DNA of 64,000 nt from Callorhinchus milii (taxonomy: Eukaryota). Position 1 is the first letter of the stretch. Each line of letters starts with the position of its first letter. A model generated the notes under the pieces. The model saw nothing but the letters and a program-made list of their open reading frames with translations. It searched no databases and had not been told where the DNA came from. Both the position numbers and the translations under genes were made by a program. Below, piece after piece: positions 32,190-64,000 of this stretch. Location: assembly GCF_018977255.1 (NCBI RefSeq), contig NW_024704742.1:37758001-37822000 (forward strand), written 5' to 3'.

Positions 32190-32357
<168 letters not shown>

Positions 32358-33477: not shown

Positions 33478-36037
33478 TCAGCCATTAAGCTCTCCACTTT
33501 GAACTGCATCTTGGTAACTCTTTCCTTTGTCTTGCTTTTCATCTGGGTAAAGTTTGATGAGATCATCAATTCGCAGGATGGTTATAGCAGCTTCTGTTGC
33601 AAACTTCAGACTCTTGACTTTAACCATAGTAGGCTCAAAGACACCAGCTTGTTTGTTGTCCCTTGGCTTCCCATTCAATAAATCAAGACCAATCCTGCAC
33701 AAACAAAATGTGAATTTGATTAACACTGTTTTAATAGCCAGTCACTACAATATTAGTAAAACATTCATAATTTCCGATTGAATTCTGACAACTCAGCCAT
33801 AAAAGTTACTTTAACAAGATGGAGAAAATCAATTTTGCACTTTACTGCTATCTGGGGCACCAGGTCACCAAAAATCAATGATTGCTCATGAATTGCAACA
33901 ATGTTCAAATTTAGTTTCATCGCTGATTCAGACAACAATGGGTCTCAAGTCACAATCTTTTGCAGACCACAGTACAATAAAATTTTTACCATTTCAAAGT
34001 TTTGCGATCAGGATTGACCTGAGCTTCGTTGTGGAATGCACGCAACTTTGCAACAAGGTCTGTAGAATCCTGAGCAGCATTCACTGCCAGAGTCTTAGGA
34101 ATAACCAACATGGCCCGGGCAAATTCTGCAATGGCAAGTTGTTCACGTGATCCCTAAACAAAAAGACAACCAACAGTTAAATACATGAAGTACTTTTAAC
34201 TTATTTTCTTAAAATAATTTTTAATACTGCAAATTAATAGGGACAGTAATCCCTGGTTAATCAGCTCAAAGCATACGTTAAAAGTGCCCTCCCCCAATAA
34301 TCTTGAAATACAATTAAACCCATACCAAACTAGTTGCATAGTTTTCCAGGTAGATGGAGAGTGCAGCTTCCACAGCCCCACCTCCTGGAACTAAAGACTT
34401 GGACTCAAGCACTCTCTTCACAACACAGAGTGCTTCATGTCGGGAGCGCTCCATCTCATCACACATGAAATCATTTGCTCCTCGCAGAATGATTGATGCA
34501 GAATTACGGGCCTTTGTACTGAAAATACAAATTAAACTTTACAACAATAGTACTTGTGAGGGTTGGGTTAAACTCATTTTAAAATGTCAGCATCAATTTA
34601 TACCTCACTTTTAGAAATCAGAATCTAGATCCCTTTTTCAATCACAAACATTGTGTGCACTGCTCCTGAATGAACAATACCTATTGCTTATATACTGTTA
34701 TGCAAAGCAATATTCATTGCCGACTTAAACCAGGAATAGATGTGACAGTTCTACTTTCATCAGCAAACTGCTTAGATTATATTTATATGCACAACAAATT
34801 TAATCTGCATCTGTGCAGTCAATATAAAAAAAATTACAAACCATTACAATCCCAACATCTTTTTCAATTCTGCAACACTAACAGTAACATTACAAGATAC
34901 TACACTGTATACATTGGAGATAATTTTTTATGTTCAGCTAATGCATTACTGAGAAGACATCAGCAAGGTCTTCAGTCACACAAGGCTGAATATTCTCTAT
35001 CCCAAGCGTACAACTGCTCATGCCACAGATATTAGCAGGGCAGCAAATAAATGGGAGTTCAGTAAGTTGTACATGTTTTTCTTACTTTTTAACAAGTATC
35101 AGTTCATCATCGCATATCCTTTCTTGAACCACCTCCTCAGCTTGGCCCACTAAAGAGGGATCAAAACTCTCATCTCCTTCCAAGTTTGCAAGAGTTGAAC
35201 AGATAGTTGCTATAAACAAAAACAGGTAAAAATCATCAGAATAGGTTTCTCAGTCCAAGACACCCTTTTCTGATTTACGTGACTTTTAACACTTCAACAA
35301 AATTACATTTGTATAGCGCCTTTCATGTCGGGAGGACGTCAGAATCACTAGGAAAATTCCAGCTGATTCCGAATGCCAACCTTTCAAAATTGAATGACAT
35401 TAATATTGGACATTAAACTCGATAGCTTGTCACTCCAAGGGTAAAGAGCTGAGCAATAAGTTATCCGGAGTAGCGAGTTTGATAAAGGTCCTCCCAGCTG
35501 CTCCGTGGCTTTTGGCCCTATCCTGTCACACGATAAGATGTAAGACAGCGTAGCAGGCCACGGCTTAGCCTCTGCAACGCATCTGAGCATAGGCACCCAA
35601 CCTCCGCTACCAATCACAGCATCGGGCTGGAGGCCTTTGTAATGCAAGATGCCATATTACAGAACGAGTTATCAGATCAATTTTCGACTAAGAAGATAGC
35701 GAATAAGCTATTTTCTGCTCGCTGGATTCAAACAATCTGAGTCAGTCATAGTGGCTATCACTAGCCATTATGAATGTCAGCACAGACAGAGGCTACTCAG
35801 TGCACCATTGATCCGCGCTAGGAGTTGGGCCCACAGAATAAAATTAATGTTTTTGGTTTTGGGCCTCGTCCAACCAGGTCGGAATTCCGGATAACTGGAG
35901 TCCAATAAGGCAGGGGATCACTAGTTTGAAAGTATGTATAATTCAAAACAGTAACCTAGTAAAAAAAATTGCTGCACTTACCTCCACTGGCCTTAACAAT
36001 TCGTCTGAGGTCTTTCTTCAGACAACGGCGTAATGCC
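33478..36037 (-). pseudogene. TCP1: TCP1 (CCT-alpha) 3' fragment copy A: partial exon 8 and exons 9-12
   Basis: Exon 12 33478-33694 (IGLDL...FATEAAITILRIDDLIKL), exon 11 33990-34153, exon 10 34326-34518, exon 9 35086-35209, exon 8 remnant 35982-36037 (ALRRCLKKDLRRIVKASG). Canonical splice sites. Exon 8 is cut by a minisatellite; ERSLHDA is changed to ERSRHEA. Confidence 0.92.
34928..35058 (-). ncRNA. SNORA20: Box H/ACA snoRNA, SNORA20 orthologue, copy 1
   Basis: Minus strand: CTCCCATTTATTTGCTGC...GAGCAGTTGTACGCTTGGGAT (hairpin 1), H box AGAGAA, TTCAGC...GCTGAA (hairpin 2), ACA plus 3 nt. About 131 nt, in TCP1 intron 9, where SNORA20 is hosted in human. The 5' half matches recalled human SNORA20. 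Confidence 0.9.
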
Positions 36038-36084
36038 CTGCAGGGACCTGCGCTGCAGGGACCTGCGCTGCAGGGACCTGCCCT
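36036..36084. repeat. 15-bp minisatellite (CTGCAGGGACCTGCG)x3 capping truncated TCP1 exon 8
   Basis: Read directly; same length again at 39508, 42400, 47756, 51175, 61049 and 63925. Confidence 0.93.
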
Positions 36085-37275
36085 ACATCCTCCCATCACA
36101 GCATCAAGCTAATTCTAAATATATCCAATATATCAAGCAGGAAGTACATCATCCAACCCCAGGAACTCTAAATTTAGAGTAGAGTTCCAACAGATATCTA
36201 CGATTATCATAGATATACCTTTGGTCACTGGAAAGAGTTCCCACTTTATTTCCTAAAACTAGTTTGTCCTAAAAATATAATAAATTTGAACTTGTAAAAA
36301 ATATATAGGGATGGAAATGTTTTCATACCATAAATAATCGCCCAAATAATTGTTGCATTTGATATAGTGGTTAGAACACTGAAACATCTCAAAGCACTTC
36401 ACATATAATTGCTGTCAAATGTAATGACTGTATATTTGTAAATAGTTGCAACATCCTTCTGACACAGAGACAAGATTGCTACCAACTGAGCTCAGTTGAC
36501 AAATAATAAATAGAGGCCAGAAATGTTTTTAAGTTTTGGTACAGAATTCTTTGAAAGTAAAGTAACTATTGTAATTACTTTACAGGAATAAAGCTACTCC
36601 TGAGAGTTTAAATAATTATAATATTCCTTGCATTTGATATCATGCCTTTCATGTCGGGAGGTTGTCACAAAGCGTTTCACAGGATTTATTTTAAAGTATA
36701 GTGACTGAACTGAGATCTCGAGAGCAGCTGGCAGTCAAATGACAAAGAATGGAAAACAGGTATTTAAAAACCAAAGTCAGATGATGCTCTAACGGCCCAC
36801 TGGGTAAAAGTACCAACTGCCGTAGCATTAAACCTTGCATTTGATATAGTGCATTTAATATAGAATCTCAGGAATGTCACAAGTTTGATCTCAATAAGAA
36901 CTACTCCGAGATGCAATACCATGCGAAGGCTGCTATGTAAATGCAGGTTGTTGTTGTTGCTTTGGGTTATTATGACTGGTCTCAGAGTCCCTGGCTTGGG
37001 AGAGTTCATGCTTCTGACTGACTCTCTTGCCCCATTGGAACCTGAGCATGGTCACAAGATGTCAGGTAATTTTAGGGTCAGCCTTATCACAAGATTGGTC
37101 TGGATTGACAACAATCACTCTCGCTCTCAAGGCTCACTCACAAAGAATGAGCACTAATGGAGATGGAGGAAGGTAACTGGTGCCTATAGAACTGTAACCC
37201 AGCAAAGGATCACCTGAAAACAACAAGACAACAACAACAAGATAGCATTTATAGAGCGCCTTTCATGTCGGGAAG

Positions 37276-37950
37276 CCCTTGCAGGGACCGGCCCTTGCAG
37301 GGACCGGCCCTTGCAGGGACCGGCCCTTGCAGGGACCGGCCCTTGCAGGGACCGGCCCTTGCGGGACCGCCCTTGCAGGGACCGGCCCTTGCAGGGACCG
37401 GCCCTTGCAGGGACCGGCCCTTGCAGGGACCGGCCCTTGCAGGGACCGGCCCTTGCAGGGACCGGCCCTTGCAGGGACCGGCCCTTGCAGGGACCGGCCC
37501 TTGCAGGGACCGGCCCTTGCAGGGACCGGCCCTTGCAGGGACCGGGCGCCCTTGCAGGGACCGGCCCTTGCAGGGACCGGCCCTTGCAGGGACCGGCCCT
37601 TGCTGGGACCGGCCCTTGCTGGGACCGGCCCTTGCTGGGACCGGCCCTTGCTGGGACCGGCCCTTGCTGGGACCGGCCCTTGCTGGGACCGGCCCTGGAC
37701 CGGCCCTTGCTGGGACCGGCCCTTGCTGGGACCGGCCCTTGCTGGGACCGGCCCTTGCTGGGACCGGCCCTTGCAGGGACCGGCCCTTGCTGGGACCGGC
37801 CCTTGCTGGGACCGGCCCTTGCAGGGACCGGCCCTTGCTGGGACCGGCCCTTGCTGGGACCGGCCCTTGCAGGGACCGGCCCTTGCAGGGACCGGCCCTT
37901 GCAGGGACCGGCCCTTGCAGGGACCGGCCCTTGCAGGGACCGGCCCTTGC
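37276..37950. repeat. 16-bp minisatellite (CCCTTGCAGGGACCGG), ~42 units with TTGCTGGG variants
   Basis: Read directly. Confidence 0.97.
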
Positions 37951-39508
37951 AAATCATTTGCTCCTCGCAGAATGATTGATGCAGAAGTACGGGCCTTTGT
38001 ACTGAAAAATACAAATTAAACTTTACAACAATAGTACTTGTGAGGGTTGGGTTAAACTCATTTTAAAATGTCAGCATCAATTTATACCTCACTTTTAGAA
38101 ATCAGAATCTAGATCCCTTTTTCAATCACAAACATTGTGTGCACTGCTCCTGAATGAACAATACCTATTGCTTATATACTGTTATGCAAAGCAATATTCA
38201 TTGCCGACTTAAACCAGGAATAGATGTGACAGTTCTACTTTCATCAGCAAACTGCTTAGATTATATTTATATGCACAACAAAATTAATCTGCATCTGTGC
38301 AGTCAATATAAAAAAAATTCAACCCCATTACAATCCCAACACCTTTTTCAATTCTGCAACACTAACAGTAACATTACAAGATACTACACTGTATACATTG
38401 GAGATAATTTTTTATGTTCAGCTAATGCATTACTGAGAAGACATCAGCAAGGTCTTCAGTCACACAAGGCTGAATATTCTCTATCCCAAGCGTACAACTG
38501 CTCATGCCACAGATATTAGCAGGGCAGCAAATAAATGGGAGTTCAGTAAGTTGTACATGTTTTTCTTACTTTTTAACAAGTATCAGTTCATCATCGCATA
38601 TCCTTTCTTGAACCACCTCCTCAGCTTGGCCCACTAAAGAGGGATCAAAACTCTCATCTCCTTCCAAGTTTGCAAGAGTTGAACAGATAGTTGCTATAAA
38701 CAAAAACAGGTAAAAATCATCAGAATAGGTTTCTCAGTCCAAGACACCCTTTTCTGATTTACGGACTTTTAACACTTCAACAAAATTACATTTGTATAGC
38801 GCCTTTCATGTCGGGAGGACGTCAGAATCACTAGGAAAATTCCAGCTGATTCCGAATGCCAACCTTTCAAAATTGAATGACATTAATATTGGACATTAAA
38901 CTCGATAGCTTGTCACTCCAAGGGTAAAGAGCTGAGCAATAAGTTATCCGGAGTAGCGAGTTTGATAAAGGTCCTCCCAGCTGCTCCGTGGCTTTTGGCC
39001 CTATCCTGTCACACGATAAGATGTAAGACAGCGTAGCAGGCCTCTGCAACGCATCTGAGCATAGGCACCCAACCTCCGCTACCAATCACAGCATCGGGCT
39101 GGAGGCCTTTGTAATGCAAGATGCCATATTACAGAACGAGTTATCAGATCAATTTTCGACTAAGAAGATAGCGAATAAGCTATTTTCTGCTCGCTGGATT
39201 CAAACAATCTGAGTCAGTCATAGTGGCTATCACTAGCCATTATGAATGTCAGCACAGACAGAGGCTACTCAGTGCACCATTGATCCGCGCTAGGAGTTGG
39301 GCCCACAGAATAAAATTAATGTTTTTGGTTTTGGGCCTCGTCCAACCAGGTCGGAATTCCGGATAACTGGAGTCCAATAAGGCAGGGGATCACTAGTTTG
39401 AAAGTATGTATAATTCAAAACAGTAACCTAGTAAAAAAAATTGCTGCACTTACCTCCACTGGCCTTAACAATTCGTCTGAGGTCTTTCTTCAGACAACGG
39501 CGTAATGC
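37951..39508 (-). pseudogene. TCP1: TCP1 internal fragment (partial exon 8 to partial exon 10), unit 2
   Basis: Copy of 34468-36036. Confidence 0.9.
38412..38542 (-). ncRNA. SNORA20: SNORA20 copy 2
   Basis: Same sequence as copy 1 by eye; flanking splice sites retained. Confidence 0.88.
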
Positions 39509-40740
39509 CCTGCAGGGACCTGCGCTGCAGGGACCTGCGCTGCAGGGACCTGCCCTACATCCTCCCATCACAGCATCAAGCTAATTCTAAATATATCCAA
39601 TATATCAAGCAGGAAGTACATCATCCAACCCCAGGAACTCTAAATTTAGAGTAGAGTTCCAACAGATATCTACGATTATCATAGATATACCTTTGGTCAC
39701 TGGAAAGAGTTCCCACTTTATTTCCTAAAACTAGTTTGTCCTAAAAATATAATAAATTTGAACTTGTAAAAAATATATAGGGATGGAAATGTTTTCATAC
39801 CATAAATAATCGCCCAAATAATTGTTGCATTTGATATAGTGGTTAGAACACTGAAACATCTCAAAGCACTTCACATATAATTGCTGTCAAATGTAATGAC
39901 TGTATATTTGTAAATAGTTGCAACATCCTTCTGACACAGAGACAAGATTGCTACCAACTGAGCTCAGTTGACAAATAATAAATAGAGGCCAGAAATGTTT
40001 TTAAGTTTTGGTACAGAATTCTTTGAAAGTAAAGTAACTATTGTAATTACTTTACAGGAATAAAGCTACTCCTGAGAGTTTAAATAATTATAATATTCCT
40101 TGCATTTGATATCATGCCTTTCATGTCGGGAGGTTGTCACAAAGCGTTTCACAGGATTTATTTTAAAGTATAGTGACTGAACTGAGATCTCGAGAGCAGC
40201 TGGCAGTCAAATGACAAAGAATGGAAAACAGGTATTTAAAAACCAAAGTCAGATGATGCTCTAACGGCCCACTGGGTAAAAGTACCAACTGCCGTAGCAT
40301 TAAACCTTGCATTTGATATAGTGCATTTAATATAGAATCTCAGGAATGTCACAAGTTTGATCTCAATAAGAACTACTCCGAGATGCAATACCATGCGAAG
40401 GCTGCTATGTAAATGCAGGTTGTTGTTGTTGCTTTGGGTTATTATGACTGGTCTCAGAGTCCCTGGCTTGGGAGAGTTCATGCTTCTGACTGACTCTCTT
40501 GCCCCATTGGAACCTGAGCATGGTCACAAGATGTCAGGTAATTTTAGGGTCAGCCTTATCACAAGATTGGTCTGGATTGACAACAATCACTCTCGCTCTC
40601 AAGGCTCACTCACAAAGAATGAGCACTAATGGAGATGGAGGAAGGTAACTGGTGCCTATAGAACTGTAACCCAGCAAAGGATCACCTGAAAACAACAAAA
40701 CAACAACAACAAGATAGCATTTATAGAGCGCCATTCAGCG

Positions 40741-40842
40741 CCTTGCAGGGACCGGCCCTTGCAGGGACCGGCCCTTGCAGGGACCGGCCCTTGCAGGGAC
40801 CGGCCCTTGCAGGGACCGGCCCTTGCAGGGACCGGCCCTTGC
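40741..40842. repeat. 16-bp minisatellite, ~6 units
   Basis: Read directly. Confidence 0.97.
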
Positions 40843-42400
40843 AAATCATTTGCTCCTCGCAGAATGATTGATGCAGAAGTACGGGCCTTTGTACTGAAAA
40901 ATACAAATTAAACTTTACAACAATAGTACTTGTGAGGGTTGGGTTAAACTCATTTTAAAATGTCAGCATCAATTTATACCTCACTTTTAGAAATCAGAAT
41001 CTAGATCCCTTTTTCAATCACAAACATTGTGTGCACTGCTCCTGAATGAACAATACCTATTGCTTATATACTGTTATGCAAAGCAATATTCATTGCCGAC
41101 TTAAACCAGGAATAGATGTGACAGTTCTACTTTCATCAGCAAACTGCTTAGATTATATTTATATGCACAACAAAATTAATCTGCATCTGTGCAGTCAATA
41201 TAAAAAAAATTCAACCCCATTACAATCCCAACACCTTTTTCAATTCTGCAACACTAACAGTAACATTACAAGATACTACACTGTATACATTGGAGATAAT
41301 TTTTTATGTTCAGCTAATGCATTACTGAGAAGACATCAGCAAGGTCTTCAGTCACACAAGGCTGAATATTCTCTATCCCAAGCGTACAACTGCTCATGCC
41401 ACAGATATTAGCAGGGCAGCAAATAAATGGGAGTTCAGTAAGTTGTACATGTTTTTCTTACTTTTTAACAAGTATCAGTTCATCATCGCATATCCTTTCT
41501 TGAACCACCTCCTCAGCTTGGCCCACTAAAGAGGGATCAAAACTCTCATCTCCTTCCAAGTTTGCAAGAGTTGAACAGATAGTTGCTATAAACAAAAACA
41601 GGTAAAAATCATCAGAATAGGTTTCTCAGTCCAAGACACCCTTTTCTGATTTACGGACTTTTAACACTTCAACAAAATTACATTTGTATAGCGCCTTTCA
41701 TGTCGGGAGGACGTCAGAATCACTAGGAAAATTCCAGCTGATTCCGAATGCCAACCTTTCAAAATTGAATGACATTAATATTGGACATTAAACTCGATAG
41801 CTTGTCACTCCAAGGGTAAAGAGCTGAGCAATAAGTTATCCGGAGTAGCGAGTTTGATAAAGGTCCTCCCAGCTGCTCCGTGGCTTTTGGCCCTATCCTG
41901 TCACACGATAAGATGTAAGACAGCGTAGCAGGCCTCTGCAACGCATCTGAGCATAGGCACCCAACCTCCGCTACCAATCACAGCATCGGGCTGGAGGCCT
42001 TTGTAATGCAAGATGCCATATTACAGAACGAGTTATCAGATCAATTTTCGACTAAGAAGATAGCGAATAAGCTATTTTCTGCTCGCTGGATTCAAACAAT
42101 CTGAGTCAGTCATAGTGGCTATCACTAGCCATTATGAATGTCAGCACAGACAGAGGCTACTCAGTGCACCATTGATCCGCGCTAGGAGTTGGGCCCACAG
42201 AATAAAATTAATGTTTTTGGTTTTGGGCCTCGTCCAACCAGGTCGGAATTCCGGATAACTGGAGTCCAATAAGGCAGGGGATCACTAGTTTGAAAGTATG
42301 TATAATTCAAAACAGTAACCTAGTAAAAAAAATTGCTGCACTTACCTCCACTGGCCTTAACAATTCGTCTGAGGTCTTTCTTCAGACAACGGCGTAATGC
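40843..42400 (-). pseudogene. TCP1: TCP1 internal fragment, unit 3
   Basis: Copy of 34468-36036. Confidence 0.9.
41304..41434 (-). ncRNA. SNORA20: SNORA20 copy 3
   Basis: Same sequence as copy 1 by eye. Confidence 0.88.
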
Positions 42401-43632
42401 CCTGCAGGGACCTGCGCTGCAGGGACCTGCGCTGCAGGGACCTGCCCTACATCCTCCCATCACAGCATCAAGCTAATTCTAAATATATCCAATATATCAA
42501 GCAGGAAGTACATCATCCAACCCCAGGAACTCTAAATTTAGAGTAGAGTTCCAACAGATATCTACGATTATCATAGATATACCTTTGGTCACTGGAAAGA
42601 GTTCCCACTTTATTTCCTAAAACTAGTTTGTCCTAAAAATATAATAAATTTGAACTTGTAAAAAATATATAGGGATGGAAATGTTTTCATACCATAAATA
42701 ATCGCCCAAATAATTGTTGCATTTGATATAGTGGTTAGAACACTGAAACATCTCAAAGCACTTCACATATAATTGCTGTCAAATGTAATGACTGTATATT
42801 TGTAAATAGTTGCAACATCCTTCTGACACAGAGACAAGATTGCTACCAACTGAGCTCAGTTGACAAATAATAAATAGAGGCCAGAAATGTTTTTAAGTTT
42901 TGGTACAGAATTCTTTGAAAGTAAAGTAACTATTGTAATTACTTTACAGGAATAAAGCTACTCCTGAGAGTTTAAATAATTATAATATTCCTTGCATTTG
43001 ATATCATGCCTTTCATGTCGGGAGGTTGTCACAAAGCGTTTCACAGGATTTATTTTAAAGTATAGTGACTGAACTGAGATCTCGAGAGCAGCTGGCAGTC
43101 AAATGACAAAGAATGGAAAACAGGTATTTAAAAACCAAAGTCAGATGATGCTCTAACGGCCCACTGGGTAAAAGTACCAACTGCCGTAGCATTAAACCTT
43201 GCATTTGATATAGTGCATTTAATATAGAATCTCAGGAATGTCACAAGTTTGATCTCAATAAGAACTACTCCGAGATGCAATACCATGCGAAGGCTGCTAT
43301 GTAAATGCAGGTTGTTGTTGTTGCTTTGGGTTATTATGACTGGTCTCAGAGTCCCTGGCTTGGGAGAGTTCATGCTTCTGACTGACTCTCTTGCCCCATT
43401 GGAACCTGAGCATGGTCACAAGATGTCAGGTAATTTTAGGGTCAGCCTTATCACAAGATTGGTCTGGATTGACAACAATCACTCTCGCTCTCAAGGCTCA
43501 CTCACAAAGAATGAGCACTAATGGAGATGGAGGAAGGTAACTGGTGCCTATAGAACTGTAACCCAGCAAAGGATCACCTGAAAACAACAAAACAACAACA
43601 ACAAGATAGCATTTATAGAGCGCCATTCAGCG

Positions 43633-46198
43633 CCTTGCAGGGACCGGCCCTTGCAGGGACCGGCCCTTGCAGGGACCGGCCCTTGCAGGGACCGGCCCTT
43701 GCAGGGACCGGCCCTTGCAGGGACCGGCCCTTGCAGGGACCGGCCCTTGCAGGGACCGGCCCTTGCAGGGACCGGCCCTTGCAGGGACCGGCCCTTGCAG
43801 GGACCGGCCCTTGCAGGGACCGGCCCTTGCAGGGACCGGCCCTTGCAGGGACCGGCCCTTGCAGGGACCGGCCCTTGCAGGGACCGGCCCTTGCAGGGAC
43901 CGGCCCTTGCAGGGACCGGCCCTTGCAGGGACCGGCCCTTGCAGGGACCGGCCCTTGCAGGGACCGGCCCTTGCAGGGACCGGCCCTTGCAGGGACCGGC
44001 CCTTGCAGGGACCGGCCCTTGCAGGGACCGGCCCTTGCAGGGACCGGCCCTTGCAGGGACCGGCCCTTGCAGGGACCGGCCCTTGCAGGGACCGGCCCTT
44101 GCAGGGACCGGCCCTTGCAGGGACCGGCCCTTGCAGGGACCGGCCCTTGCAGGGACCGGCCCTTGCAGGGACCGGCCCTTGCAGGGACCGGCCCTTGCAG
44201 GGACTGGCCCTTGCAGGGACCGGCCCTTGCAGGGACCGGCCCTTGCAGGGACCGGCCCTTGCAGGGACCGGCCCTTGCAGGGACCGGCCCTGGCAGGGAC
44301 CGGCCCTTGCAGGGACCGGCCCTTGCAGGGACCGGCCCTTGCAGGGACCGGCCCTTGCAGGGACCGGCCCTTGCAGGGACCGGCCCTTGCAGGGACCGGC
44401 CCTTGCAGGGACCGGCCCTTGCAGGGACCGGCCCTTGCAGGGACCGGCCCTTGCAGGGACCGGCCCTTGCAGGGACCGGCCCTTGCAGGGACCGGCCCTT
44501 GCAGGGACCGGCCCTTGCAGGGACCGGCCCTTGCAGGGACCGGCCCTTGCAGGGACCGGCCCTTGCAGGGACCGGCCCTTGCAGGGACCGGCCCTTGCAG
44601 GGACCGGCCCTTGCAGGGACCGGCCCTTGCAGGGACCGGCCCTTGCAGGGACCGGCCCTTGCAGGGACCGGCCCTTGCAGGGACCGGCCCTTGCAGGGAC
44701 CGGCCCTTGCAGGGACCGGCCCTTGCAGGGACCGGCCCTTGCAGGGACCGGCCCTTGCAGGGACCGGCCCTTGCAGGGACCGGCCCTTGCAGGGACCGGC
44801 CCTTGCAGGGACCGGCCCTTGCAGGGACCGGCCCTTGCAGGGACCGGCCCTTGCAGGGACCGGCCCTTGCAGGGACCGGCCCTTGCAGGGACCGGCCCTT
44901 GCAGGGACCGGCCCTTGCAGGGACCGGCCCTTGCAGGGACCGGCCCTTGCAGGGACCGGCCCTTGCAGGGACCGGCCCTTGCAGGGACCGGCCCTTGCAG
45001 GGACCGGCCCTTGCAGGGACCGGCCCTTGCAGGGACCGGCCCTTGCAGGGACCGGCCCTTGCAGGGACCGGCCCTTGCAGGGACCGGCCCTTGCAGGGAC
45101 CGGCCCTTGCAGGGACCGGCCCTTGCAGGGACCGGCCCTTGCAGGGACCGGCCCTTGCAGGGACCGGCCCTTGCAGGGACCGGCCCTTGCAGGGACCGGC
45201 CCTTGCAGGGACCGGCCCTTGCAGGGACCGGCCCTTGCAGGGACCGGCCCTTGCAGGGACCGGCCCTTGCAGGGACCGGCCCTTGCAGGGACCGGCCCTT
45301 GCAGGGACCGGCCCTTGCAGGGACCGGCCCTTGCAGGGACCGGCCCTTGCAGGGACCGGCCCTTGCAGGGACCGGCCCTTGCAGGGACCGGCCCTTGCAG
45401 GGACCGGCCCTTGCAGGGACCGGCCCTTGCAGGGACCGGCCCTTGCAGGGACCGGCCCTTGCAGGGACCGGCCCTTGCAGGGACCGGCCCTTGCAGGGAC
45501 CGGCCCTTGCAGGGACCGGCCCTTGCAGGGACCGGCCCTTGCAGGGACCGGCCCTTGCAGGGACCGGCCCTTGCAGGGACCGGCCCTTGCAGGGACCGGC
45601 CCTTGCAGGGACCGGCCCTTGCAGGGACCGGCCCTTGCAGGGACCGGCCCTTGCAGGGACCGGCCCTTGCAGGGACCGGCCCTTGCAGGGACCGGCCCTT
45701 GCAGGGACCGGCCCTTGCAGGGACCGGCCCTTGCAGGGACCGGCCCTTGCAGGGACCGGCCCTTGCAGGGACCGGCCCTTGCAGGGACCGGCCCTTGCAG
45801 GGACCGGCCCTTGCAGGGACCGGCCCTTGCAGGGACCGGCCCTTGCAGGGACCGGCCCTTGCAGGGACCGGCCCTTGCAGGGACCGGCCCTTGCAGGGAC
45901 CGGCCCTTGCAGGGACCGGCCCTTGCAGGGACCGGCCCTTGCAGGGACCGGCCCTTGCAGGGACCGGCCCTTGCAGGGACCGGCCCTTGCAGGGACCGGC
46001 CCTTGCAGGGACCGGCCCTTGCAGGGACCGGCCCTTGCAGGGACCGGCCCTTGCAGGGACCGGCCCTTGCAGGGACCGGCCCTTGCAGGGACCGGCCCTT
46101 GCAGGGACCGGCCCTTGCAGGGACCGGCCCTTGCAGGGACCGGCCCTTGCAGGGACCGGCCCTTGCAGGGACCGGCCCTTGCAGGGACCGGCCCTTGC
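43633..46198. repeat. 16-bp minisatellite, ~160 nearly pure units
   Basis: Read directly; only two variant units noticed (~44205 and ~44292). Confidence 0.98.
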
Positions 46199-47756
46199 AA
46201 ATCATTTGCTCCTCGCAGAATGATTGATGCAGAAGTACGGGCCTTTGTACTGAAAAATACAAATTAAACTTTACAACAATAGTACTTGTGAGGGTTGGGT
46301 TAAACTCATTTTAAAATGTCAGCATCAATTTATACCTCACTTTTAGAAATCAGAATCTAGATCCCTTTTTCAATCACAAACATTGTGTGCACTGCTCCTG
46401 AATGAACAATACCTATTGCTTATATACTGTTATGCAAAGCAATATTCATTGCCGACTTAAACCAGGAATAGATGTGACAGTTCTACTTTCATCAGCAAAC
46501 TGCTTAGATTATATTTATATGCACAACAAAATTAATCTGCATCTGTGCAGTCAATATAAAAAAAATTCAACCCCATTACAATCCCAACACCTTTTTCAAT
46601 TCTGCAACACTAACAGTAACATTACAAGATACTACACTGTATACATTGGAGATAATTTTTTATGTTCAGCTAATGCATTACTGAGAAGACATCAGCAAGG
46701 TCTTCAGTCACACAAGGCTGAATATTCTCTATCCCAAGCGTACAACTGCTCATGCCACAGATATTAGCAGGGCAGCAAATAAATGGGAGTTCAGTAAGTT
46801 GTACATGTTTTTCTTACTTTTTAACAAGTATCAGTTCATCATCGCATATCCTTTCTTGAACCACCTCCTCAGCTTGGCCCACTAAAGAGGGATCAAAACT
46901 CTCATCTCCTTCCAAGTTTGCAAGAGTTGAACAGATAGTTGCTATAAACAAAAACAGGTAAAAATCATCAGAATAGGTTTCTCAGTCCAAGACACCCTTT
47001 TCTGATTTACGGACTTTTAACACTTCAACAAAATTACATTTGTATAGCGCCTTTCATGTCGGGAGGACGTCAGAATCACTAGGAAAATTCCAGCTGATTC
47101 CGAATGCCAACCTTTCAAAATTGAATGACATTAATATTGGACATTAAACTCGATAGCTTGTCACTCCAAGGGTAAAGAGCTGAGCAATAAGTTATCCGGA
47201 GTAGCGAGTTTGATAAAGGTCCTCCCAGCTGCTCCGTGGCTTTTGGCCCTATCCTGTCACACGATAAGATGTAAGACAGCGTAGCAGGCCTCTGCAACGC
47301 ATCTGAGCATAGGCACCCAACCTCCGCTACCAATCACAGCATCGGGCTGGAGGCCTTTGTAATGCAAGATGCCATATTACAGAACGAGTTATCAGATCAA
47401 TTTTCGACTAAGAAGATAGCGAATAAGCTATTTTCTGCTCGCTGGATTCAAACAATCTGAGTCAGTCATAGTGGCTATCACTAGCCATTATGAATGTCAG
47501 CACAGACAGAGGCTACTCAGTGCACCATTGATCCGCGCTAGGAGTTGGGCCCACAGAATAAAATTAATGTTTTTGGTTTTGGGCCTCGTCCAACCAGGTC
47601 GGAATTCCGGATAACTGGAGTCCAATAAGGCAGGGGATCACTAGTTTGAAAGTATGTATAATTCAAAACAGTAACCTAGTAAAAAAAATTGCTGCACTTA
47701 CCTCCACTGGCCTTAACAATTCGTCTGAGGTCTTTCTTCAGACAACGGCGTAATGC
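46199..47756 (-). pseudogene. TCP1: TCP1 internal fragment, unit 4
   Basis: Copy of 34468-36036. Confidence 0.9.
46660..46790 (-). ncRNA. SNORA20: SNORA20 copy 4
   Basis: Same sequence as copy 1 by eye. Confidence 0.88.
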
Positions 47757-48988: not shown

Positions 48989-49617
48989 CCTTGCAGGGAC
49001 CGGCCCTTGCAGGGACCGGCCCTTGCAGGGACCGGCCCTTGCAGGGACCGGCCCTTGCAGGGACCGGCCCTTGCAGGGACCGGCCCTTGCAGGGACCGGC
49101 CCTTGCAGGGACCGGCCCTTGCAGGGACCGGCCCTTGCAGGGACCGGCCCTTGCAGGGACCGGCCCTTGCAGGGACCGGCCCTTGCAGGGACCGGCCCTT
49201 GCAGGGACCGGCCCTTGCAGGGACCGGCCCTTGCAGGGACCGGCCCTTGCAGGGACCGGCCCTTGCAGGGACCGGCCCTTGCAGGGACCGGCCCTTGCAG
49301 GGACCGGCCCTTGCAGGGACCGGCCCTTGCTGGGACCGGCCCTTGCTGGGACCGGCCCTTGCAGGGACCGGCCCTTGCTGGGACCGGCCCTTGCTGGGAC
49401 CGGCCCTTGCTGGGACCGGCCCTTGCTGGGACCGGCCCTTGCTGGGACCGGCCCTTGCGGGACCGGCCCTTGCAGGGACCGGCCCTTGCTGGGACCGGCC
49501 CTTGCTGGGACCGGCCCTTGCTGGGACCGGCCCTTGCAGGGACCGGCCCTTGCTGGGACCGGCCCTTGCTGGGACCGGCCCTTGCTGGGACCGGCCCTTG
49601 CAGGGACCGGCCCTTGC
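48989..49617. repeat. 16-bp minisatellite, ~39 units with TTGCTGGG variants in the right half
   Basis: Read directly. Confidence 0.97.
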
Positions 49618-51175
49618 AAATCATTTGCTCCTCGCAGAATGATTGATGCAGAAGTACGGGCCTTTGTACTGAAAAATACAAATTAAACTTTACAACAATA
49701 GTACTTGTGAGGGTTGGGTTAAACTCATTTTAAAATGTCAGCATCAATTTATACCTCACTTTTAGAAATCAGAATCTAGATCCCTTTTTCAATCACAAAC
49801 ATTGTGTGCACTGCTCCTGAATGAACAATACCTATTGCTTATATACTGTTATGCAAAGCAATATTCATTGCCGACTTAAACCAGGAATAGATGTGACAGT
49901 TCTACTTTCATCAGCAAACTGCTTAGATTATATTTATATGCACAACAAAATTAATCTGCATCTGTGCAGTCAATATAAAAAAAATTCAACCCCATTACAA
50001 TCCCAACACCTTTTTCAATTCTGCAACACTAACAGTAACATTACAAGATACTACACTGTATACATTGGAGATAATTTTTTATGTTCAGCTAATGCATTAC
50101 TGAGAAGACATCAGCAAGGTCTTCAGTCACACAAGGCTGAATATTCTCTATCCCAAGCGTACAACTGCTCATGCCACAGATATTAGCAGGGCAGCAAATA
50201 AATGGGAGTTCAGTAAGTTGTACATGTTTTTCTTACTTTTTAACAAGTATCAGTTCATCATCGCATATCCTTTCTTGAACCACCTCCTCAGCTTGGCCCA
50301 CTAAAGAGGGATCAAAACTCTCATCTCCTTCCAAGTTTGCAAGAGTTGAACAGATAGTTGCTATAAACAAAAACAGGTAAAAATCATCAGAATAGGTTTC
50401 TCAGTCCAAGACACCCTTTTCTGATTTACGGACTTTTAACACTTCAACAAAATTACATTTGTATAGCGCCTTTCATGTCGGGAGGACGTCAGAATCACTA
50501 GGAAAATTCCAGCTGATTCCGAATGCCAACCTTTCAAAATTGAATGACATTAATATTGGACATTAAACTCGATAGCTTGTCACTCCAAGGGTAAAGAGCT
50601 GAGCAATAAGTTATCCGGAGTAGCGAGTTTGATAAAGGTCCTCCCAGCTGCTCCGTGGCTTTTGGCCCTATCCTGTCACACGATAAGATGTAAGACAGCG
50701 TAGCAGGCCTCTGCAACGCATCTGAGCATAGGCACCCAACCTCCGCTACCAATCACAGCATCGGGCTGGAGGCCTTTGTAATGCAAGATGCCATATTACA
50801 GAACGAGTTATCAGATCAATTTTCGACTAAGAAGATAGCGAATAAGCTATTTTCTGCTCGCTGGATTCAAACAATCTGAGTCAGTCATAGTGGCTATCAC
50901 TAGCCATTATGAATGTCAGCACAGACAGAGGCTACTCAGTGCACCATTGATCCGCGCTAGGAGTTGGGCCCACAGAATAAAATTAATGTTTTTGGTTTTG
51001 GGCCTCGTCCAACCAGGTCGGAATTCCGGATAACTGGAGTCCAATAAGGCAGGGGATCACTAGTTTGAAAGTATGTATAATTCAAAACAGTAACCTAGTA
51101 AAAAAAATTGCTGCACTTACCTCCACTGGCCTTAACAATTCGTCTGAGGTCTTTCTTCAGACAACGGCGTAATGC
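49618..51175 (-). pseudogene. TCP1: TCP1 internal fragment, unit 5
   Basis: Copy of 34468-36036. Confidence 0.9.
50079..50209 (-). ncRNA. SNORA20: SNORA20 copy 5
   Basis: Same sequence as copy 1 by eye. Confidence 0.88.
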
Positions 51176-52407
51176 CCTGCAGGGACCTGCGCTGCAGGGA
51201 CCTGCGCTGCAGGGACCTGCCCTACATCCTCCCATCACAGCATCAAGCTAATTCTAAATATATCCAATATATCAAGCAGGAAGTACATCATCCAACCCCA
51301 GGAACTCTAAATTTAGAGTAGAGTTCCAACAGATATCTACGATTATCATAGATATACCTTTGGTCACTGGAAAGAGTTCCCACTTTATTTCCTAAAACTA
51401 GTTTGTCCTAAAAATATAATAAATTTGAACTTGTAAAAAATATATAGGGATGGAAATGTTTTCATACCATAAATAATCGCCCAAATAATTGTTGCATTTG
51501 ATATAGTGGTTAGAACACTGAAACATCTCAAAGCACTTCACATATAATTGCTGTCAAATGTAATGACTGTATATTTGTAAATAGTTGCAACATCCTTCTG
51601 ACACAGAGACAAGATTGCTACCAACTGAGCTCAGTTGACAAATAATAAATAGAGGCCAGAAATGTTTTTAAGTTTTGGTACAGAATTCTTTGAAAGTAAA
51701 GTAACTATTGTAATTACTTTACAGGAATAAAGCTACTCCTGAGAGTTTAAATAATTATAATATTCCTTGCATTTGATATCATGCCTTTCATGTCGGGAGG
51801 TTGTCACAAAGCGTTTCACAGGATTTATTTTAAAGTATAGTGACTGAACTGAGATCTCGAGAGCAGCTGGCAGTCAAATGACAAAGAATGGAAAACAGGT
51901 ATTTAAAAACCAAAGTCAGATGATGCTCTAACGGCCCACTGGGTAAAAGTACCAACTGCCGTAGCATTAAACCTTGCATTTGATATAGTGCATTTAATAT
52001 AGAATCTCAGGAATGTCACAAGTTTGATCTCAATAAGAACTACTCCGAGATGCAATACCATGCGAAGGCTGCTATGTAAATGCAGGTTGTTGTTGTTGCT
52101 TTGGGTTATTATGACTGGTCTCAGAGTCCCTGGCTTGGGAGAGTTCATGCTTCTGACTGACTCTCTTGCCCCATTGGAACCTGAGCATGGTCACAAGATG
52201 TCAGGTAATTTTAGGGTCAGCCTTATCACAAGATTGGTCTGGATTGACAACAATCACTCTCGCTCTCAAGGCTCACTCACAAAGAATGAGCACTAATGGA
52301 GATGGAGGAAGGTAACTGGTGCCTATAGAACTGTAACCCAGCAAAGGATCACCTGAAAACAACAAAACAACAACAACAAGATAGCATTTATAGAGCGCCA
52401 TTCAGCG

Positions 52408-52445
52408 CCTTGCAGGGACCGGCCCTGGCCGGGACCGGCCCTTGC
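52408..52445. repeat. 16-bp minisatellite, ~2 units (one degenerate)
   Basis: CCTTGCAGGGACCGGCCCTGGCCGGGACCGGCCCTTGC. Confidence 0.92.
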
Positions 52446-57385
<4,940 letters not shown>

Positions 57386-58501
57386 ATTACTCCTAAATTT
57401 TACGACAAGAACTGAAGATACTCTGCAGCTAAGCTACTGACTGGATAAAATTGAGGTTTTATTTTAGAGGTTACAGCCTGATTCCAATGAAATGTAGGTG
57501 CATTTTGTTTTTATAATGAATGTGTAAAGTAGGTAGGTTTTAAAACTATTCAAAACTTCAGTCCACATAAAATGGTTCTGAAAATTAGTGTAACTTTTAA
57601 ATATTTGATTAAATGTACTGAAGTTTGAAATCATAGTAATATTGTGTATGTGCAATCCATACTTTTGTTAAAATTCATAAGTTCCTTCCTATTATCTCTC
57701 AATTCAGATTGACCATTTTTTTCTTTATGAAATAAATTGCTCAATGTACCATTGCTGAATCTTGTAAACTGACTCTCAAATTACATCAAGTGCCAGTATT
57801 TATAGAAGGGCAAAATGGTTGAATACATGTGAGAAAGCAGGGGAACATTCATTGTATTTTAATTTTGCTTTAATTGATTTACAAATGCTCCCTAATACTT
57901 TTGAGCATTTTATCATTCCCCATGGTAAGATCAGCAACCAAGAATCAGAGAGGTTACTTATTTGGGGAGATAATAATCATCCTTGTATTTGATATAGTGC
58001 CTTATTACATCCTTCCCCAGTAGTATTTTTAATGAATGTTTTCCCCAGTGAATTTGTGTGAGAGAGAAATCATGTCCACAATGAAATAACATACACAATT
58101 AATTAGATTTGAAAAGACCAGAAGCACAACATCAACGTTTATTCATGAAATTAAGGTGATCTCTTAACAGCTCCCTACATAGATGGGCTGATCACTTGAC
58201 AACTGTCACATTTTATTTCTGAAGGAGCTTGAAGCACAACTGTCAATGTACAGGAAATAATTTTGCACAAATAACTTGAAAGAGTTGACTATAGGTAACA
58301 AAGTAAGAGGTCTTTTAAATCCGGTTTGTGCCAAATAGCACTAAACAAGCATAGTAAATTAAACAGAGCACTAAACAAGTGGCACTGGATTTCAGACACG
58401 TATGACAAGCTGCTCAATCTAGAACAGAAGTACAAGAAGCACCTGATGGATGCCAAGAGTTAAACATGAATTATAACAGCTGATTTTAGAACTCAGGTGC
58501 T

Positions 58502-61049
58502 TCAGCCATTAAGCTCTCCACTTTGAACTGCATCTTGGTAACTCTTTCCTTTGTCTTGCTTTTCATCTGGGTAAAGTTTGATGAGATCATCAATTCGCAG
58601 GATGGTTATAGCAGCTTCTGTTGCAAACTTCAGACTCTTGACTTTAACCATAGTAGGCTCAAAGACACCAGCTTGTTTGTTGTCCCTTGGCTTCCCATTC
58701 AATAAATCAAGACCAATCCTGCACAAACAAAATGTGAATTTGATTAACACTGTTTTAATAGCCAGTCACTACAATATTAGTAAAACATGCATAATTTCCG
58801 ATTGAATTCTGACAACTCCGCCATAAAAGTTACTTTAACAAGATGGAGAAAATCAATTTTGCACTTTACTGCTATCTGGGGCACCAGGTCACCAAAAATC
58901 AATGATTGCTCATGAATTGCAACAATGTTCAAATTTAGTTTCATCGCTGATTCAGACAACAATGGGTCTCAAGTCACAATCTTTTGCAGACCACAGTACA
59001 ATAAAATTTTTACCATTTCAAAGTTTTGCGATCAGGATTGACCTGAGCTTCGTTGTGGAATGCACGCAACTTTGCAACAAGGTCTGTAGAATCCTGAGCA
59101 GCATTCACTGCCAGAGTCTTAGGAATAACCAACATGGCCCGGGCAAATTCTGCAGTGGCAAGTTGTTCACGTGATCCCTAAACAAAAAGACAGCCAACAG
59201 TTAAATACATGAAGTACTTTTAACTTATTTTCTTAAAATAATTTTTAATACTGCAAATTAATAGGGACAGTAATCCCTGGTTAATCAGCTCAAAGCATAC
59301 GGTAAAAGTGCCCTCCCCCAATAATCTTGAAATACAATTAAACCCATACCAAACTAGTTGCATAGTTTTCCAGGTAGATGGAGAGTGCGGCTTCCACAAC
59401 CCCACCTCCTGGAACTAAAGACTTGGACTCAAGCACTCTCTTCACAACACAGAGTGCATCATGTAGGGAGCGCTCCATCTCATCACACATGAAATCATTT
59501 GCTCCTCGCAGAATGATTGATGCAGAAGTACGGGCCTTTGTACTGAAAAATACAAATTAAACTTTACAACAATAGTACTTGTGAGGGTTGGGTTAAACTC
59601 ATTTTAAAATGTCAGCATCAATTTATACCTCACTTTTAGAAATCAGAATCTAGATCCCTTTTTCAATCACAAACATTGTGTGCACTGCTCCTGAATGAAC
59701 AATACCTATTGCTTATATACTGTTATGCAAAGCAATATTCATTGCCGACTTAAACCAGGAATAGATGTGACAGTTCTACTTTCATCAGCAAACTGCTTAG
59801 ATTATATTTATATGCACAACAAAATTAATCTGCATCTGTGCAGTCAATATAAAAAAAATTCAACCCCATTACAATCCCAACATCTTTTTCAATTCTGCAA
59901 CACTAACAGTAACATTACAAGATACTACACTGTATACATTGGAGATAATTTTTTATGTTCAGCTAATGCATTACTGAGAAGACATCAGCAAGGTCTTCAG
60001 TCACACAAGGCTGAATATTCTCTATCCCAAGCGTACAACTGCTCATGCCACAGATATTAGCAGGGCAGCAAATAAATGGGAGTTCAGTAAGTTGTACATG
60101 TTTTTCTTACTTTTTAACAAGTATCAGTTCATCATCGCATATCCTTTCTTGAACCACCTCCTCAGCTTGGCCCACTAAAGAGGGATCAAAACTCTCATCT
60201 CCTTCCAAGTTTGCAAGAGTTGAACAGATAGTTGCTATAAACAAAAACAGGTAAAAATCATCAGAATAGGTTTCTCAGTCCAAGACACCCTTTTCTGATT
60301 TACGGACTTTTAACACTTCAACAAAATTACATTTGTATAGCGCCTTTCATGTCGGGAGGACGTCAGAATCACTAGGAAAATTCCAGCTGATTCCGAATGC
60401 CAACCTTTCAAAATTGAATGACATTAATATTGGACATTAAACTCGATAGCTTGTCACTCCAAGGGTAAAGAGCTGAGCAATAAGTTATCCGGAGTAGCGA
60501 GTTTGATAAAGGTCCTCCCAGCTGCTCCGTGGCTTTTGGCCCTATCCTGTCACACGATAAGATGTAAGACAGCGTAGCAGGCCTCTGCAACGCATCTGAG
60601 CATAGGCACCCAACCTCCGCTACCAATCACAGCATCGGGCTGGAGGCCTTTGTAATGCAAGATGCCATATTACAGAACGAGTTATCAGATCAATTTTCGA
60701 CTAAGAAGATAGCGAATAAGCTATTTTCTGCTCGCTGGATTCAAACAATCTGAGTCAGTCATAGTGGCTATCACTAGCCATTATGAATGTCAGCACAGAC
60801 AGAGGCTACTCAGTGCACCATTGATCCGCGCTAGGAGTTGGGCCCACAGAATAAAATTAATGTTTTTGGTTTTGGGCCTCGTCCAACCAGGTCGGAATTC
60901 CGGATAACTGGAGTCCAATAAGGCAGGGGATCACTAGTTTGAAAGTATGTATAATTCAAAACAGTAACCTAGTAAAAAAAATTGCTGCACTTACCTCCAC
61001 TGGCCTTAACAATTCGTCTGAGGTCTTTCTTCAGACAACGGCGTAATGC
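58502..61049 (-). pseudogene. TCP1: TCP1 3' fragment copy B: partial exon 8 and exons 9-12
   Basis: Exon 12 58502-58718, exon 11 59014-59177, exon 10 59350-59542, exon 9 60111-60234, exon 8 remnant 60995-61049. Same exon 8 truncation as copy A. GGGAVE changed to GGGVVE, LAIAEF to LATAEF. Confidence 0.92.
59953..60083 (-). ncRNA. SNORA20: SNORA20 copy 7
   Basis: Same sequence as copy 1 by eye; intron 9 of TCP1 copy B. Confidence 0.88.
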
Positions 61050-62281
61050 CCTGCAGGGACCTGCGCTGCAGGGACCTGCGCTGCAGGGACCTGCCCTACA
61101 TCCTCCCATCACAGCATCAAGCTAATTCTAAATATATCCAATATATCAAGCAGGAAGTACATCATCCAACCCCAGGAACTCTAAATTTAGAGTAGAGTTC
61201 CAACAGATATCTACGATTATCATAGATATACCTTTGGTCACTGGAAAGAGTTCCCACTTTATTTCCTAAAACTAGTTTGTCCTAAAAATATAATAAATTT
61301 GAACTTGTAAAAAATATATAGGGATGGAAATGTTTTCATACCATAAATAATCGCCCAAATAATTGTTGCATTTGATATAGTGGTTAGAACACTGAAACAT
61401 CTCAAAGCACTTCACATATAATTGCTGTCAAATGTAATGACTGTATATTTGTAAATAGTTGCAACATCCTTCTGACACAGAGACAAGATTGCTACCAACT
61501 GAGCTCAGTTGACAAATAATAAATAGAGGCCAGAAATGTTTTTAAGTTTTGGTACAGAATTCTTTGAAAGTAAAGTAACTATTGTAATTACTTTACAGGA
61601 ATAAAGCTACTCCTGAGAGTTTAAATAATTATAATATTCCTTGCATTTGATATCATGCCTTTCATGTCGGGAGGTTGTCACAAAGCGTTTCACAGGATTT
61701 ATTTTAAAGTATAGTGACTGAACTGAGATCTCGAGAGCAGCTGGCAGTCAAATGACAAAGAATGGAAAACAGGTATTTAAAAACCAAAGTCAGATGATGC
61801 TCTAACGGCCCACTGGGTAAAAGTACCAACTGCCGTAGCATTAAACCTTGCATTTGATATAGTGCATTTAATATAGAATCTCAGGAATGTCACAAGTTTG
61901 ATCTCAATAAGAACTACTCCGAGATGCAATACCATGCGAAGGCTGCTATGTAAATGCAGGTTGTTGTTGTTGCTTTGGGTTATTATGACTGGTCTCAGAG
62001 TCCCTGGCTTGGGAGAGTTCATGCTTCTGACTGACTCTCTTGCCCCATTGGAACCTGAGCATGGTCACAAGATGTCAGGTAATTTTAGGGTCAGCCTTAT
62101 CACAAGATTGGTCTGGATTGACAACAATCACTCTCGCTCTCAAGGCTCACTCACAAAGAATGAGCACTAATGGAGATGGAGGAAGGTAACTGGTGCCTAT
62201 AGAACTGTAACCCAGCAAAGGATCACCTGAAAACAACAAAACAACAACAACAAGATAGCATTTATAGAGCGCCATTCAGCG

Positions 62282-62367
62282 CCTTGCAGGGACCGGCCCT
62301 TGCAGGGACCGGCCCTTGCAGGGACCGGCCCTTGCAGGGACCGGCCCTTGCAGGGACCGGCCCTTGC
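62282..62367. repeat. 16-bp minisatellite, ~5 units
   Basis: Read directly. Confidence 0.96.
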
Positions 62368-63925
62368 AAATCATTTGCTCCTCGCAGAATGATTGATGCA
62401 GAAGTACGGGCCTTTGTACTGAAAAATACAAATTAAACTTTACAACAATAGTACTTGTGAGGGTTGGGTTAAACTCATTTTAAAATGTCAGCATCAATTT
62501 ATACCTCACTTTTAGAAATCAGAATCTAGATCCCTTTTTCAATCACAAACATTGTGTGCACTGCTCCTGAATGAACAATACCTATTGCTTATATACTGTT
62601 ATGCAAAGCAATATTCATTGCCGACTTAAACCAGGAATAGATGTGACAGTTCTACTTTCATCAGCAAACTGCTTAGATTATATTTATATGCACAACAAAA
62701 TTAATCTGCATCTGTGCAGTCAATATAAAAAAAATTCAACCCCATTACAATCCCAACACCTTTTTCAATTCTGCAACACTAACAGTAACATTACAAGATA
62801 CTACACTGTATACATTGGAGATAATTTTTTATGTTCAGCTAATGCATTACTGAGAAGACATCAGCAAGGTCTTCAGTCACACAAGGCTGAATATTCTCTA
62901 TCCCAAGCGTACAACTGCTCATGCCACAGATATTAGCAGGGCAGCAAATAAATGGGAGTTCAGTAAGTTGTACATGTTTTTCTTACTTTTTAACAAGTAT
63001 CAGTTCATCATCGCATATCCTTTCTTGAACCACCTCCTCAGCTTGGCCCACTAAAGAGGGATCAAAACTCTCATCTCCTTCCAAGTTTGCAAGAGTTGAA
63101 CAGATAGTTGCTATAAACAAAAACAGGTAAAAATCATCAGAATAGGTTTCTCAGTCCAAGACACCCTTTTCTGATTTACGGACTTTTAACACTTCAACAA
63201 AATTACATTTGTATAGCGCCTTTCATGTCGGGAGGACGTCAGAATCACTAGGAAAATTCCAGCTGATTCCGAATGCCAACCTTTCAAAATTGAATGACAT
63301 TAATATTGGACATTAAACTCGATAGCTTGTCACTCCAAGGGTAAAGAGCTGAGCAATAAGTTATCCGGAGTAGCGAGTTTGATAAAGGTCCTCCCAGCTG
63401 CTCCGTGGCTTTTGGCCCTATCCTGTCACACGATAAGATGTAAGACAGCGTAGCAGGCCTCTGCAACGCATCTGAGCATAGGCACCCAACCTCCGCTACC
63501 AATCACAGCATCGGGCTGGAGGCCTTTGTAATGCAAGATGCCATATTACAGAACGAGTTATCAGATCAATTTTCGACTAAGAAGATAGCGAATAAGCTAT
63601 TTTCTGCTCGCTGGATTCAAACAATCTGAGTCAGTCATAGTGGCTATCACTAGCCATTATGAATGTCAGCACAGACAGAGGCTACTCAGTGCACCATTGA
63701 TCCGCGCTAGGAGTTGGGCCCACAGAATAAAATTAATGTTTTTGGTTTTGGGCCTCGTCCAACCAGGTCGGAATTCCGGATAACTGGAGTCCAATAAGGC
63801 AGGGGATCACTAGTTTGAAAGTATGTATAATTCAAAACAGTAACCTAGTAAAAAAAATTGCTGCACTTACCTCCACTGGCCTTAACAATTCGTCTGAGGT
63901 CTTTCTTCAGACAACGGCGTAATGC
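62368..63925 (-). pseudogene. TCP1: TCP1 internal fragment, unit 8 (the repeat unit continues off the right edge)
   Basis: Copy of 34468-36036. Confidence 0.9.
62829..62959 (-). ncRNA. SNORA20: SNORA20 copy 8
   Basis: Same sequence as copy 1 by eye. Confidence 0.88.
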
Positions 63926-64000
63926 CCTGCAGGGACCTGCGCTGCAGGGACCTGCGCTGCAGGGACCTGCCCTACATCCTCCCATCACAGCATCAAGCTA

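Follow-up and report, generated by a model that had tools for sequence, protein, structure and literature searches.

Tandem SNORA20-bearing TCP1 fragments in Callorhinchus milii as probable passengers of a dispersed ACAT2-TCP1 duplication family

Why should identical copies of a small nucleolar RNA (snoRNA) stand in tandem, each inside a broken piece of its host gene? The window that raises this question, 64,000 nucleotides of DNA from the chimaera Callorhinchus milii (G000:C1:37,758,001-37,822,000; positions given without a contig or locus are those of this window), holds an array of TCP1 fragments with SNORA20 in their intron 9, which could be a newly arisen snoRNA host or the product of neutral amplification. 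We consider it probable that the array is a tandem expansion in a 47-kb ACAT2-TCP1 duplicate lying within a long interspersed nuclear element (LINE), that this duplicate belongs to a recent, dispersed family of segmental duplications, and that SNORA20 is likely an unselected passenger. Neutral amplification, allowed for as an alternative by a first-pass annotation of the window, fits better given the dispersed family and its many members without a snoRNA or with a broken one.

The eight snoRNA copies in the window are 131 nt each, identical in sequence, on the minus strand and one to a unit (units 1 to 8: 34928-35058, 38412-38542, 41304-41434, 46660-46790, 50079-50209, 52907-53037, 59953-60083 and 62829-62959). 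They lie 27 nt from the donor and 410 nt from the acceptor of TCP1 intron 9 and show the hairpin-H box-hairpin-ACA anatomy: two hairpins, an AGAGAA box at position 61 and the ACA box 3 nt before the end, with 8 of 200 shuffles folding equally well (z = −1.94). The 5′ pocket surrounds the 18S target U at 14-15 nt from the H box, and its best partner among all U residues of this genome's 18S is U612, with 12 pairs against 10 for the runner-up (the usual geometry gives 8+3); this is the site named earlier, and the proposed fit to a conserved 18S position was borne out. The available text of two papers describes human SNORA20 (ACA20) as TCP1-hosted and as the guide for 18S U651 (PMC3766210, PMC4824147). 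An Rfam scan of the window at gathering score returned no SNORA20, only two tRNA-like heads of short interspersed nuclear elements (SINEs): over the full model length the snoRNA scored 39.7 bits (E 0.001) against the 60-bit cut-off of SNORA20 (RF00401), mainly on account of a diverged 3′ hairpin, and a near-complete TCP1 copy on contig C1473 carries the same SNORA20 sequence with the same score. Because the intron is the correct one, the fold is of H/ACA type and the pocket fits the genome's own 18S, we assign the array snoRNA as a SNORA20 ortholog by position and target, not as a member of the Rfam family, so that the earlier identification stands on intron, fold and pocket but not on the Rfam score. 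It resembles RF00401 in its TCP1 intron, its H/ACA anatomy and a 5′ pocket that can pair with the corresponding 18S site, and differs in its score, its 3′ hairpin and its number of genomic copies, at least 35 versus one.

The units that carry the snoRNA are close to uniform. Units 2-5 (37951-52407, minus strand, with 16-bp arrays between them) share an identical sequence of 2,790 bases, a single base separates unit 7 from unit 2, and unit 1 is 99.2% identical. A short unit consists of an exon 10 stub, intron 9 with SNORA20, exon 9, intron 8, an exon 8 remnant and a captured segment of 1.18 kb (36086-37270, plus strand) from G000:C4:18.369-18.371 Mb, which is present in every full unit. Exon 8 is joined to this segment by about three copies of a 15-bp variant of the junction motif described below (36034-36081, plus strand), also repeated in every full unit. 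The first 16-bp minisatellite array follows (37275-37951, plus strand, 43 copies), and further ones lie at 40741-40843, 43633-46199, 48989-49618, 52408-52446 and 62282-62368. Unit 6 (52446-53277, minus strand) is truncated and fused to exon 4 of a second ACAT2 3′ part; unit 8 begins at 62368 (minus strand) and runs to the window end at 64000, beyond which three further units (9-11) bring the total to 11. As the first-pass annotation had described, intron 9 is whole with its snoRNA, donor and acceptor in eight of eight units, and the intron 8 donor is kept in the seven units other than truncated unit 6. The intron 8 acceptor is present in all eight.

Units 1 and 7 are the ends of long blocks that pair a plus-strand ACAT2 3′ part with minus-strand TCP1 exons, and both units continue into whole exons 10, 11 and 12, the 3′ untranslated region and ACAT2. 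Block A combines ACAT2 exons 4-9 (28497-32357, plus strand; exons 2-3 are absent, leaving no full ACAT2) with unit 1 (33119-36096, minus strand), which comprises a chimeric ATG, the exon 8 remnant, complete TCP1 exons 9-12 and poly(A) signals. Block B (53278-62281), which contains a SINE insertion (55416-55737), combines the second ACAT2 3′ part with TCP1 from exon 12 to the exon 8 remnant, that is, unit 7, and is likely the parent of the short units. TCP1 exon 12 matches proteins named Callorhinchus milii TCP1 at 100% identity. An ATG in the captured DNA upstream opens a 270-codon chimeric TCP1 frame in units 1 and 7, matching public gene models P0247 and P0245, and the short units match a public 115-aa model spliced out of the repeat. 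The earlier claim that both outer exons are cut so that no TCP1 protein can be made thus fails for units 1 and 7, and these long frames set the array apart from a non-coding snoRNA host. Nor is there one TCP1 poly(A) site at which a transcript through the array would end, as had been proposed: there are two poly(A) regions, at 33119/33193 after unit 1 and at 58143/58217 after unit 7, so a single transcript would not simply span all units.

We then placed the array among its relatives, with family counts taken from 1,051,812 fetched bases, about 0.1% of the genome. The intron 9 stretch matched at 40 of 40 scored places, a lower bound, 29 of them outside this array, on contigs C1, C2, C3, C4, C9, C43 and C1473. 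The left end of the insert (26980-27090, plus strand), a truncated ACAT2 promoter and exon 1 with its ATG at 27032 recognised by tblastn with ACAT2 protein P0268, gave 37 genome matches, 29 of them strong, and added C5, C7 and C962. Family copies are 95-100% identical and occupy at least seven contigs. SNORA20 was present in 35 full copies, on six contigs, and 4 partial ones, and ACAT2 exon 1 in 22 full and 6 partial copies; the commonest family element is the ACAT2 promoter with the 16-bp repeat, and members that lack the snoRNA or hold a broken one are numerous. On C5, an array, ACAT2 exon 1 and 11-12 kb of local DNA were amplified as three snoRNA-free units. The amplified snoRNA cassette of the first-pass annotation accordingly holds for the eight identical copies but not as a local cassette, since the array continues to 11 units and belongs to a dispersed family.

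Family members are circularly permuted and truncated, and carry DNA from earlier landing regions. The same join of TCP1 intron 4 to the junction motif occurs in five copies, opened at different points, and the members on C9, at C4:15.3 Mb, on C1473 and at C3:72.9 Mb share it with different starts; a tandem-array donor would yield the same permuted pattern as a circle. The C4:18.369-18.371 Mb donor has no motif or element left within 20 kb. Local DNA left of the insert (20559-24264, plus strand) recurs, flanked on each side by the motif, within palindromic members at C1:32.26 Mb and C2:21.98 Mb.

The 16-bp repeat apparently grew out of the ACAT2 promoter, where the motif occurs once at the native gene beside WTAP, whereas arrays in the duplicates reach 633 units (~10 kb). 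Family members are headed by arrays, which also occupy numerous new junctions, and array lengths differ at every junction of the array studied here. Exact 16-bp dimers numbered 4,515 genome-wide and about 3,438 in the fetched family loci, by patterns that differ by one base of phase, and the 15-bp variant fell at family loci in 10 of 10 genome matches. Scoring the motif as present at a score of at least 22, we found it at 18 of 89 alignment-end classes (~15 separate junctions, since the two sides of a junction may give two rows) versus 2 of 3,000 random flank windows, and in 18 of 53 ends leaving the element versus 0 of 36 internal deletions. In short caps to foreign DNA the outward-forward orientation scored higher in all eight checked by eye, three of them by 1-2 points, a small margin because the motif is nearly palindromic. 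The 16-bp array folds into a long DNA hairpin (z = −6.7, none of 200 shuffles as good). We regard the 16-bp repeat as the likely driver of the copying. MicroRNA-family matches on the array lay far below the cut-off and were set aside as composition artefacts.

A series of steps could produce such a family. First, TCP1 intron 4 would have been joined to the ACAT2 promoter, founding a repeat unit or circle; hairpin-forming arrays would then stall or break DNA, offering a landing pad for template switches at microhomologies of 1-6 bases, and excised pieces would travel as extrachromosomal DNA and re-integrate elsewhere. Fusion of an array end to exon 10 in a block-B-like copy would have given rise to the 2.79-kb unit, and unequal exchange would multiply whatever DNA lies between two arrays, here a unit that happens to hold a snoRNA.

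The insertion site carries marks of its own. The whole 47-kb block sits within one LINE, whose left half occupies 26370-26979 and whose right half restarts ~10 kb past the window (G000:C1:~37,832,076). In third LINE copies, at best 91% identical to each flank, both flanks abut, showing an insertion with an imperfect overlap of 3-9 bases and no loss of target DNA.

Several observations weigh against the passenger reading. The mechanism is read from end products, with no circle, break or template switch observed; the left end of the insert, within the window, lacks the junction motif, as do 35 of the 53 outward ends, which include probe ends, SINE insertions and about a dozen true junctions. SNORA20 outnumbers SNORA29, also TCP1-hosted, by 35 to 2 in the fetched bases, in part through ascertainment, as the loci were found via the SNORA20 region, and several fragments of 200-244 bases hold little beyond the snoRNA. 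The snoRNA copies are identical in 26 of 35 cases, and in Fisher tests of snoRNA versus intron on three overlapping copy sets, which have low power, one set had fewer variable sites in the snoRNA (3 of 122 versus 33 of 338 in the intron, P = 0.0095; the other sets, P = 0.19 and 0.41). The signal came from shared variants (P = 0.34, 0.02 and 0.09, the second again counting against a passenger), while for private variants the snoRNA showed no significant deficit relative to introns (P = 0.56, 0.37 and 1.0). Because the signal lies in shared and not private variants, the pattern agrees with neutral copies derived from a functional source gene. In favour of the passenger reading, three breaks or insertions lie inside the 131-nt snoRNA.

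These points lead to the alternatives, of which the one closest to the first-pass annotation holds that the array is read on the minus strand from the CpG island of an adjacent STBD1-like gene, splicing out extra SNORA20, with selection keeping the copies. The island starts ~0.4 kb past the right end of the array (observed/expected CpG 0.56-1.13 in 500-base windows) and is a possible candidate promoter, as judged from base composition and position, since divergent transcription would read in the TCP1 sense. The whole intron 9 splice sites in all units, predicted public gene models over the units (X1/X2 isoforms, with the repeat spliced to an acceptor at 37041), the one nominally significant conservation test and a unit depth that is high and similar in four other samples would all suit such a host. 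We nevertheless find it unlikely, as a transcript would be halted by the TCP1 poly(A) region that follows unit 7 and fail to reach units 1-6, members with no snoRNA or a broken one are common, and two of three conservation tests were null; we also know of no H/ACA guide for a single rRNA site that is dose-limiting. A bolder form of the duplication reading, in which the single promoter motif is a self-propagating recombination seed, its hairpin arrays copied in a fixed outward orientation onto broken ends and carrying kilobases of cargo from one chromosome to another with no transposase of their own, and in which more than 100 identical exon-intron-SNORA20 units read from behind the STBD1 promoter form a snoRNA cluster at birth, seems to us doubtful. 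Alternatively, the 16-bp array and ACAT2 promoter could be the end of a non-autonomous transposon of Helitron or Pack type, mobilised by an enzyme in trans. The near-fixed promoter-motif head, variable tails, head-to-tail tandems and captured gene pieces are reminiscent of rolling-circle elements, and the target was entered without deletion and with the imperfect 3-9 base overlap. Against this, ends differ among copies, the head in the window included, and members can carry motif caps internally as well as at either end; junction listings, made without a dedicated inverted-repeat search, gave no fixed termini with a target-site rule. Searching 76 of 100 long open reading frames of the fetched loci, with the rest of the genome unsearched, we found no Helitron or DDE catalytic domain, only LINE and long terminal repeat pieces and two Tc5 DNA-binding fragments, and we rate a transposon end as improbable.

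It could also be asked whether identical units are merely an assembly expansion, given that units 2-5 are the same across 2,790 bases, that assembly gaps interrupt the native TCP1 locus, and that the join of unit 6 to ACAT2 (53277/53278) is absent among the rows listed for four other samples. Contigs of these samples, all from one study, match unit alleles with 0-2 differences, and their depth, which is per contig and not a copy number, was 1,146-1,480 for introns 8-9 with the snoRNA, 903-1,179 for the captured segment and 631-855 for ACAT2, compared to ~5-15 (median near 8.5) for single repeat-flank contigs in the same table. The unit therefore stands at roughly 100-170 times single-contig depth versus 11-16 assembled copies of this type, such that the assembly more likely under-counts units. 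One contig spans the captured segment into the 16-bp array, and array length varies at each junction. Assembly expansion is largely refuted and, to our minds, extremely improbable, and the refutation by assembly expansion that the first-pass annotation allowed for fails.

Tandem snoRNA clusters in non-coding hosts, such as SNORD115/116 and GAS5-type hosts, likewise consist of repeated exon-intron-snoRNA units with intact splice sites. The units here differ in being recent and identical, in having host pieces in a dispersed family that is often snoRNA-free, and in being known from DNA alone. Closer is the primate core duplicon LCR16a/NPIP, which, in the portion of its description available to us, seeds serial interspersed duplications and drags flanking donors to non-orthologous sites, with junctions often in repeats, fusion genes possible and 3.4-80 kb of target DNA lost at 12 of 13 sites (PMC7419210). 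By analogy, the family appears to work like such a core duplicon with a short promoter-derived repeat at its junctions: most fetched loci share one core, the 16-bp array and/or ACAT2 exon 1, and, as in that partial account, interspersed copies of high identity have captured flanking donors (C4:18.37 Mb; 20559-24264). Compared with LCR16a as described there, however, the core measures kilobases in place of tens to hundreds of kilobases and consists of a 16-bp minisatellite of promoter origin together with ACAT2 exon 1; almost every coding copy is disrupted, with no sign of a selected gene, and no target DNA was missing at the one site tested. Duplication through circular intermediates, as the accessible parts of reports on tilapia vasa (PMC3245284) and human cSDPs (PMC7450558) describe it, shares with this family the permuted insert order, microhomology or short fillers at junctions and distant insertion, but those are single events, whereas here there are dozens of serial ones with multimers and a recurrent junction repeat. 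A literature search, to which subscription papers and genome-paper supplements were out of reach, returned no paper on a C. milii ACAT2-TCP1 duplication family.

The native WTAP-ACAT2-TCP1 locus is itself split at assembly gaps into parts 6.3 Mb apart, WTAP with ACAT2 exon 1 at C3:56.86 Mb (56.857) and TCP1 exons 1-4 at C3:63.19 Mb. No intact assembled TCP1 or ACAT2 gene was seen in this assembly, and full-length proteins exist for both (P0003, P0268). GC-rich repeats of ACAT2 intron 1, detected with TRF at 27110-27860 (plus strand), occur also at the native locus beside WTAP, and upstream of native TCP1, from ~90 bases before its start codon, runs a GC-rich minisatellite longer than 1.3 kb (L044:8693-10000 onward). 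The TCP1 copy on C1473 carries a degenerate SNORA20-like sequence without an ACA box in intron 7 (L031:7437-7560) and SNORA29 (54.4 bits) in intron 5 by present numbering (L031:9693-9830); the available text of PMC4824147 places human SNORA29 in the fourth intron. A second intron-containing TCP1-like gene lies at G000:C15:14,038,554-14,045,064 (L038, L039), and no Rfam match at E 0.05 was found in L039 (introns up to 9). With 60-80% identity per exon at the protein level, it was rejected as the source of the family. We also rejected dosage amplification of ACAT2 for the assembled copies, one of six exon 2 matches being complete and that copy starting with GTG; because only this one is complete, the assembled ACAT2 copies are judged nearly all dead.

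Among other family members, the two 26-kb palindromic ones (G000:C1:32.24-32.29 Mb and C2:21.96-22.01 Mb) match each other, along with 10 kb or more of flank on either side, at 98-99.6% identity and represent either a recent interchromosomal copy or a misplaced haplotype. Minimal exon 9-donor-SNORA20 fragments lie directly behind, and divergent to, an ACAT2 promoter copy at L070:6374-6609 and L090:8906-9184, where antisense promoter activity could read them, and Tc5/pogo DNA-binding fragments were found in cargo adjoining minimal snoRNA fragments (L034:2657-3505, L071:504-1316). Another member sits in an intron of an EGF gene that we take, from its sequence, to be nephronectin-like (G000:C1:32.52-32.54 Mb; L048, L105), and public model P0269 joins N-terminal exons of this gene in frame to ACAT2 exons 5-9. 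In block A, and not in block B, a 70-base near-perfect palindrome with weak microRNA-family matches lies at the ACAT2 exon 5 acceptor (29925-29994). The insert is placed between an exon (9074-9601) presumably FAM47-like and the gene we take to be STBD1-like (CBM_20; L014:1340-1560 and 3252-4190), with a presumed CCDC158 exon (L016:5950-6471) also in its flank, names that combine Pfam domains with known synteny. The window opens with 5.3 kb of CA-rich degenerate satellite (1-5340).

The duplication family accounts for the broken state and the multiple annotation of ACAT2 and TCP1 in this genome. Core-duplicon behaviour has been described mainly in primates; a case in a slowly evolving cartilaginous fish, with a short, defined junction sequence, would allow the question of what renders a core mobile to be put to the test on a 16-base motif. 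The family also offers a route by which a single intronic snoRNA may reach tens to hundreds of splice-competent copies without retrotransposition, and such SNORA20 amplification is a possible first step towards clusters like SNORD115/116.

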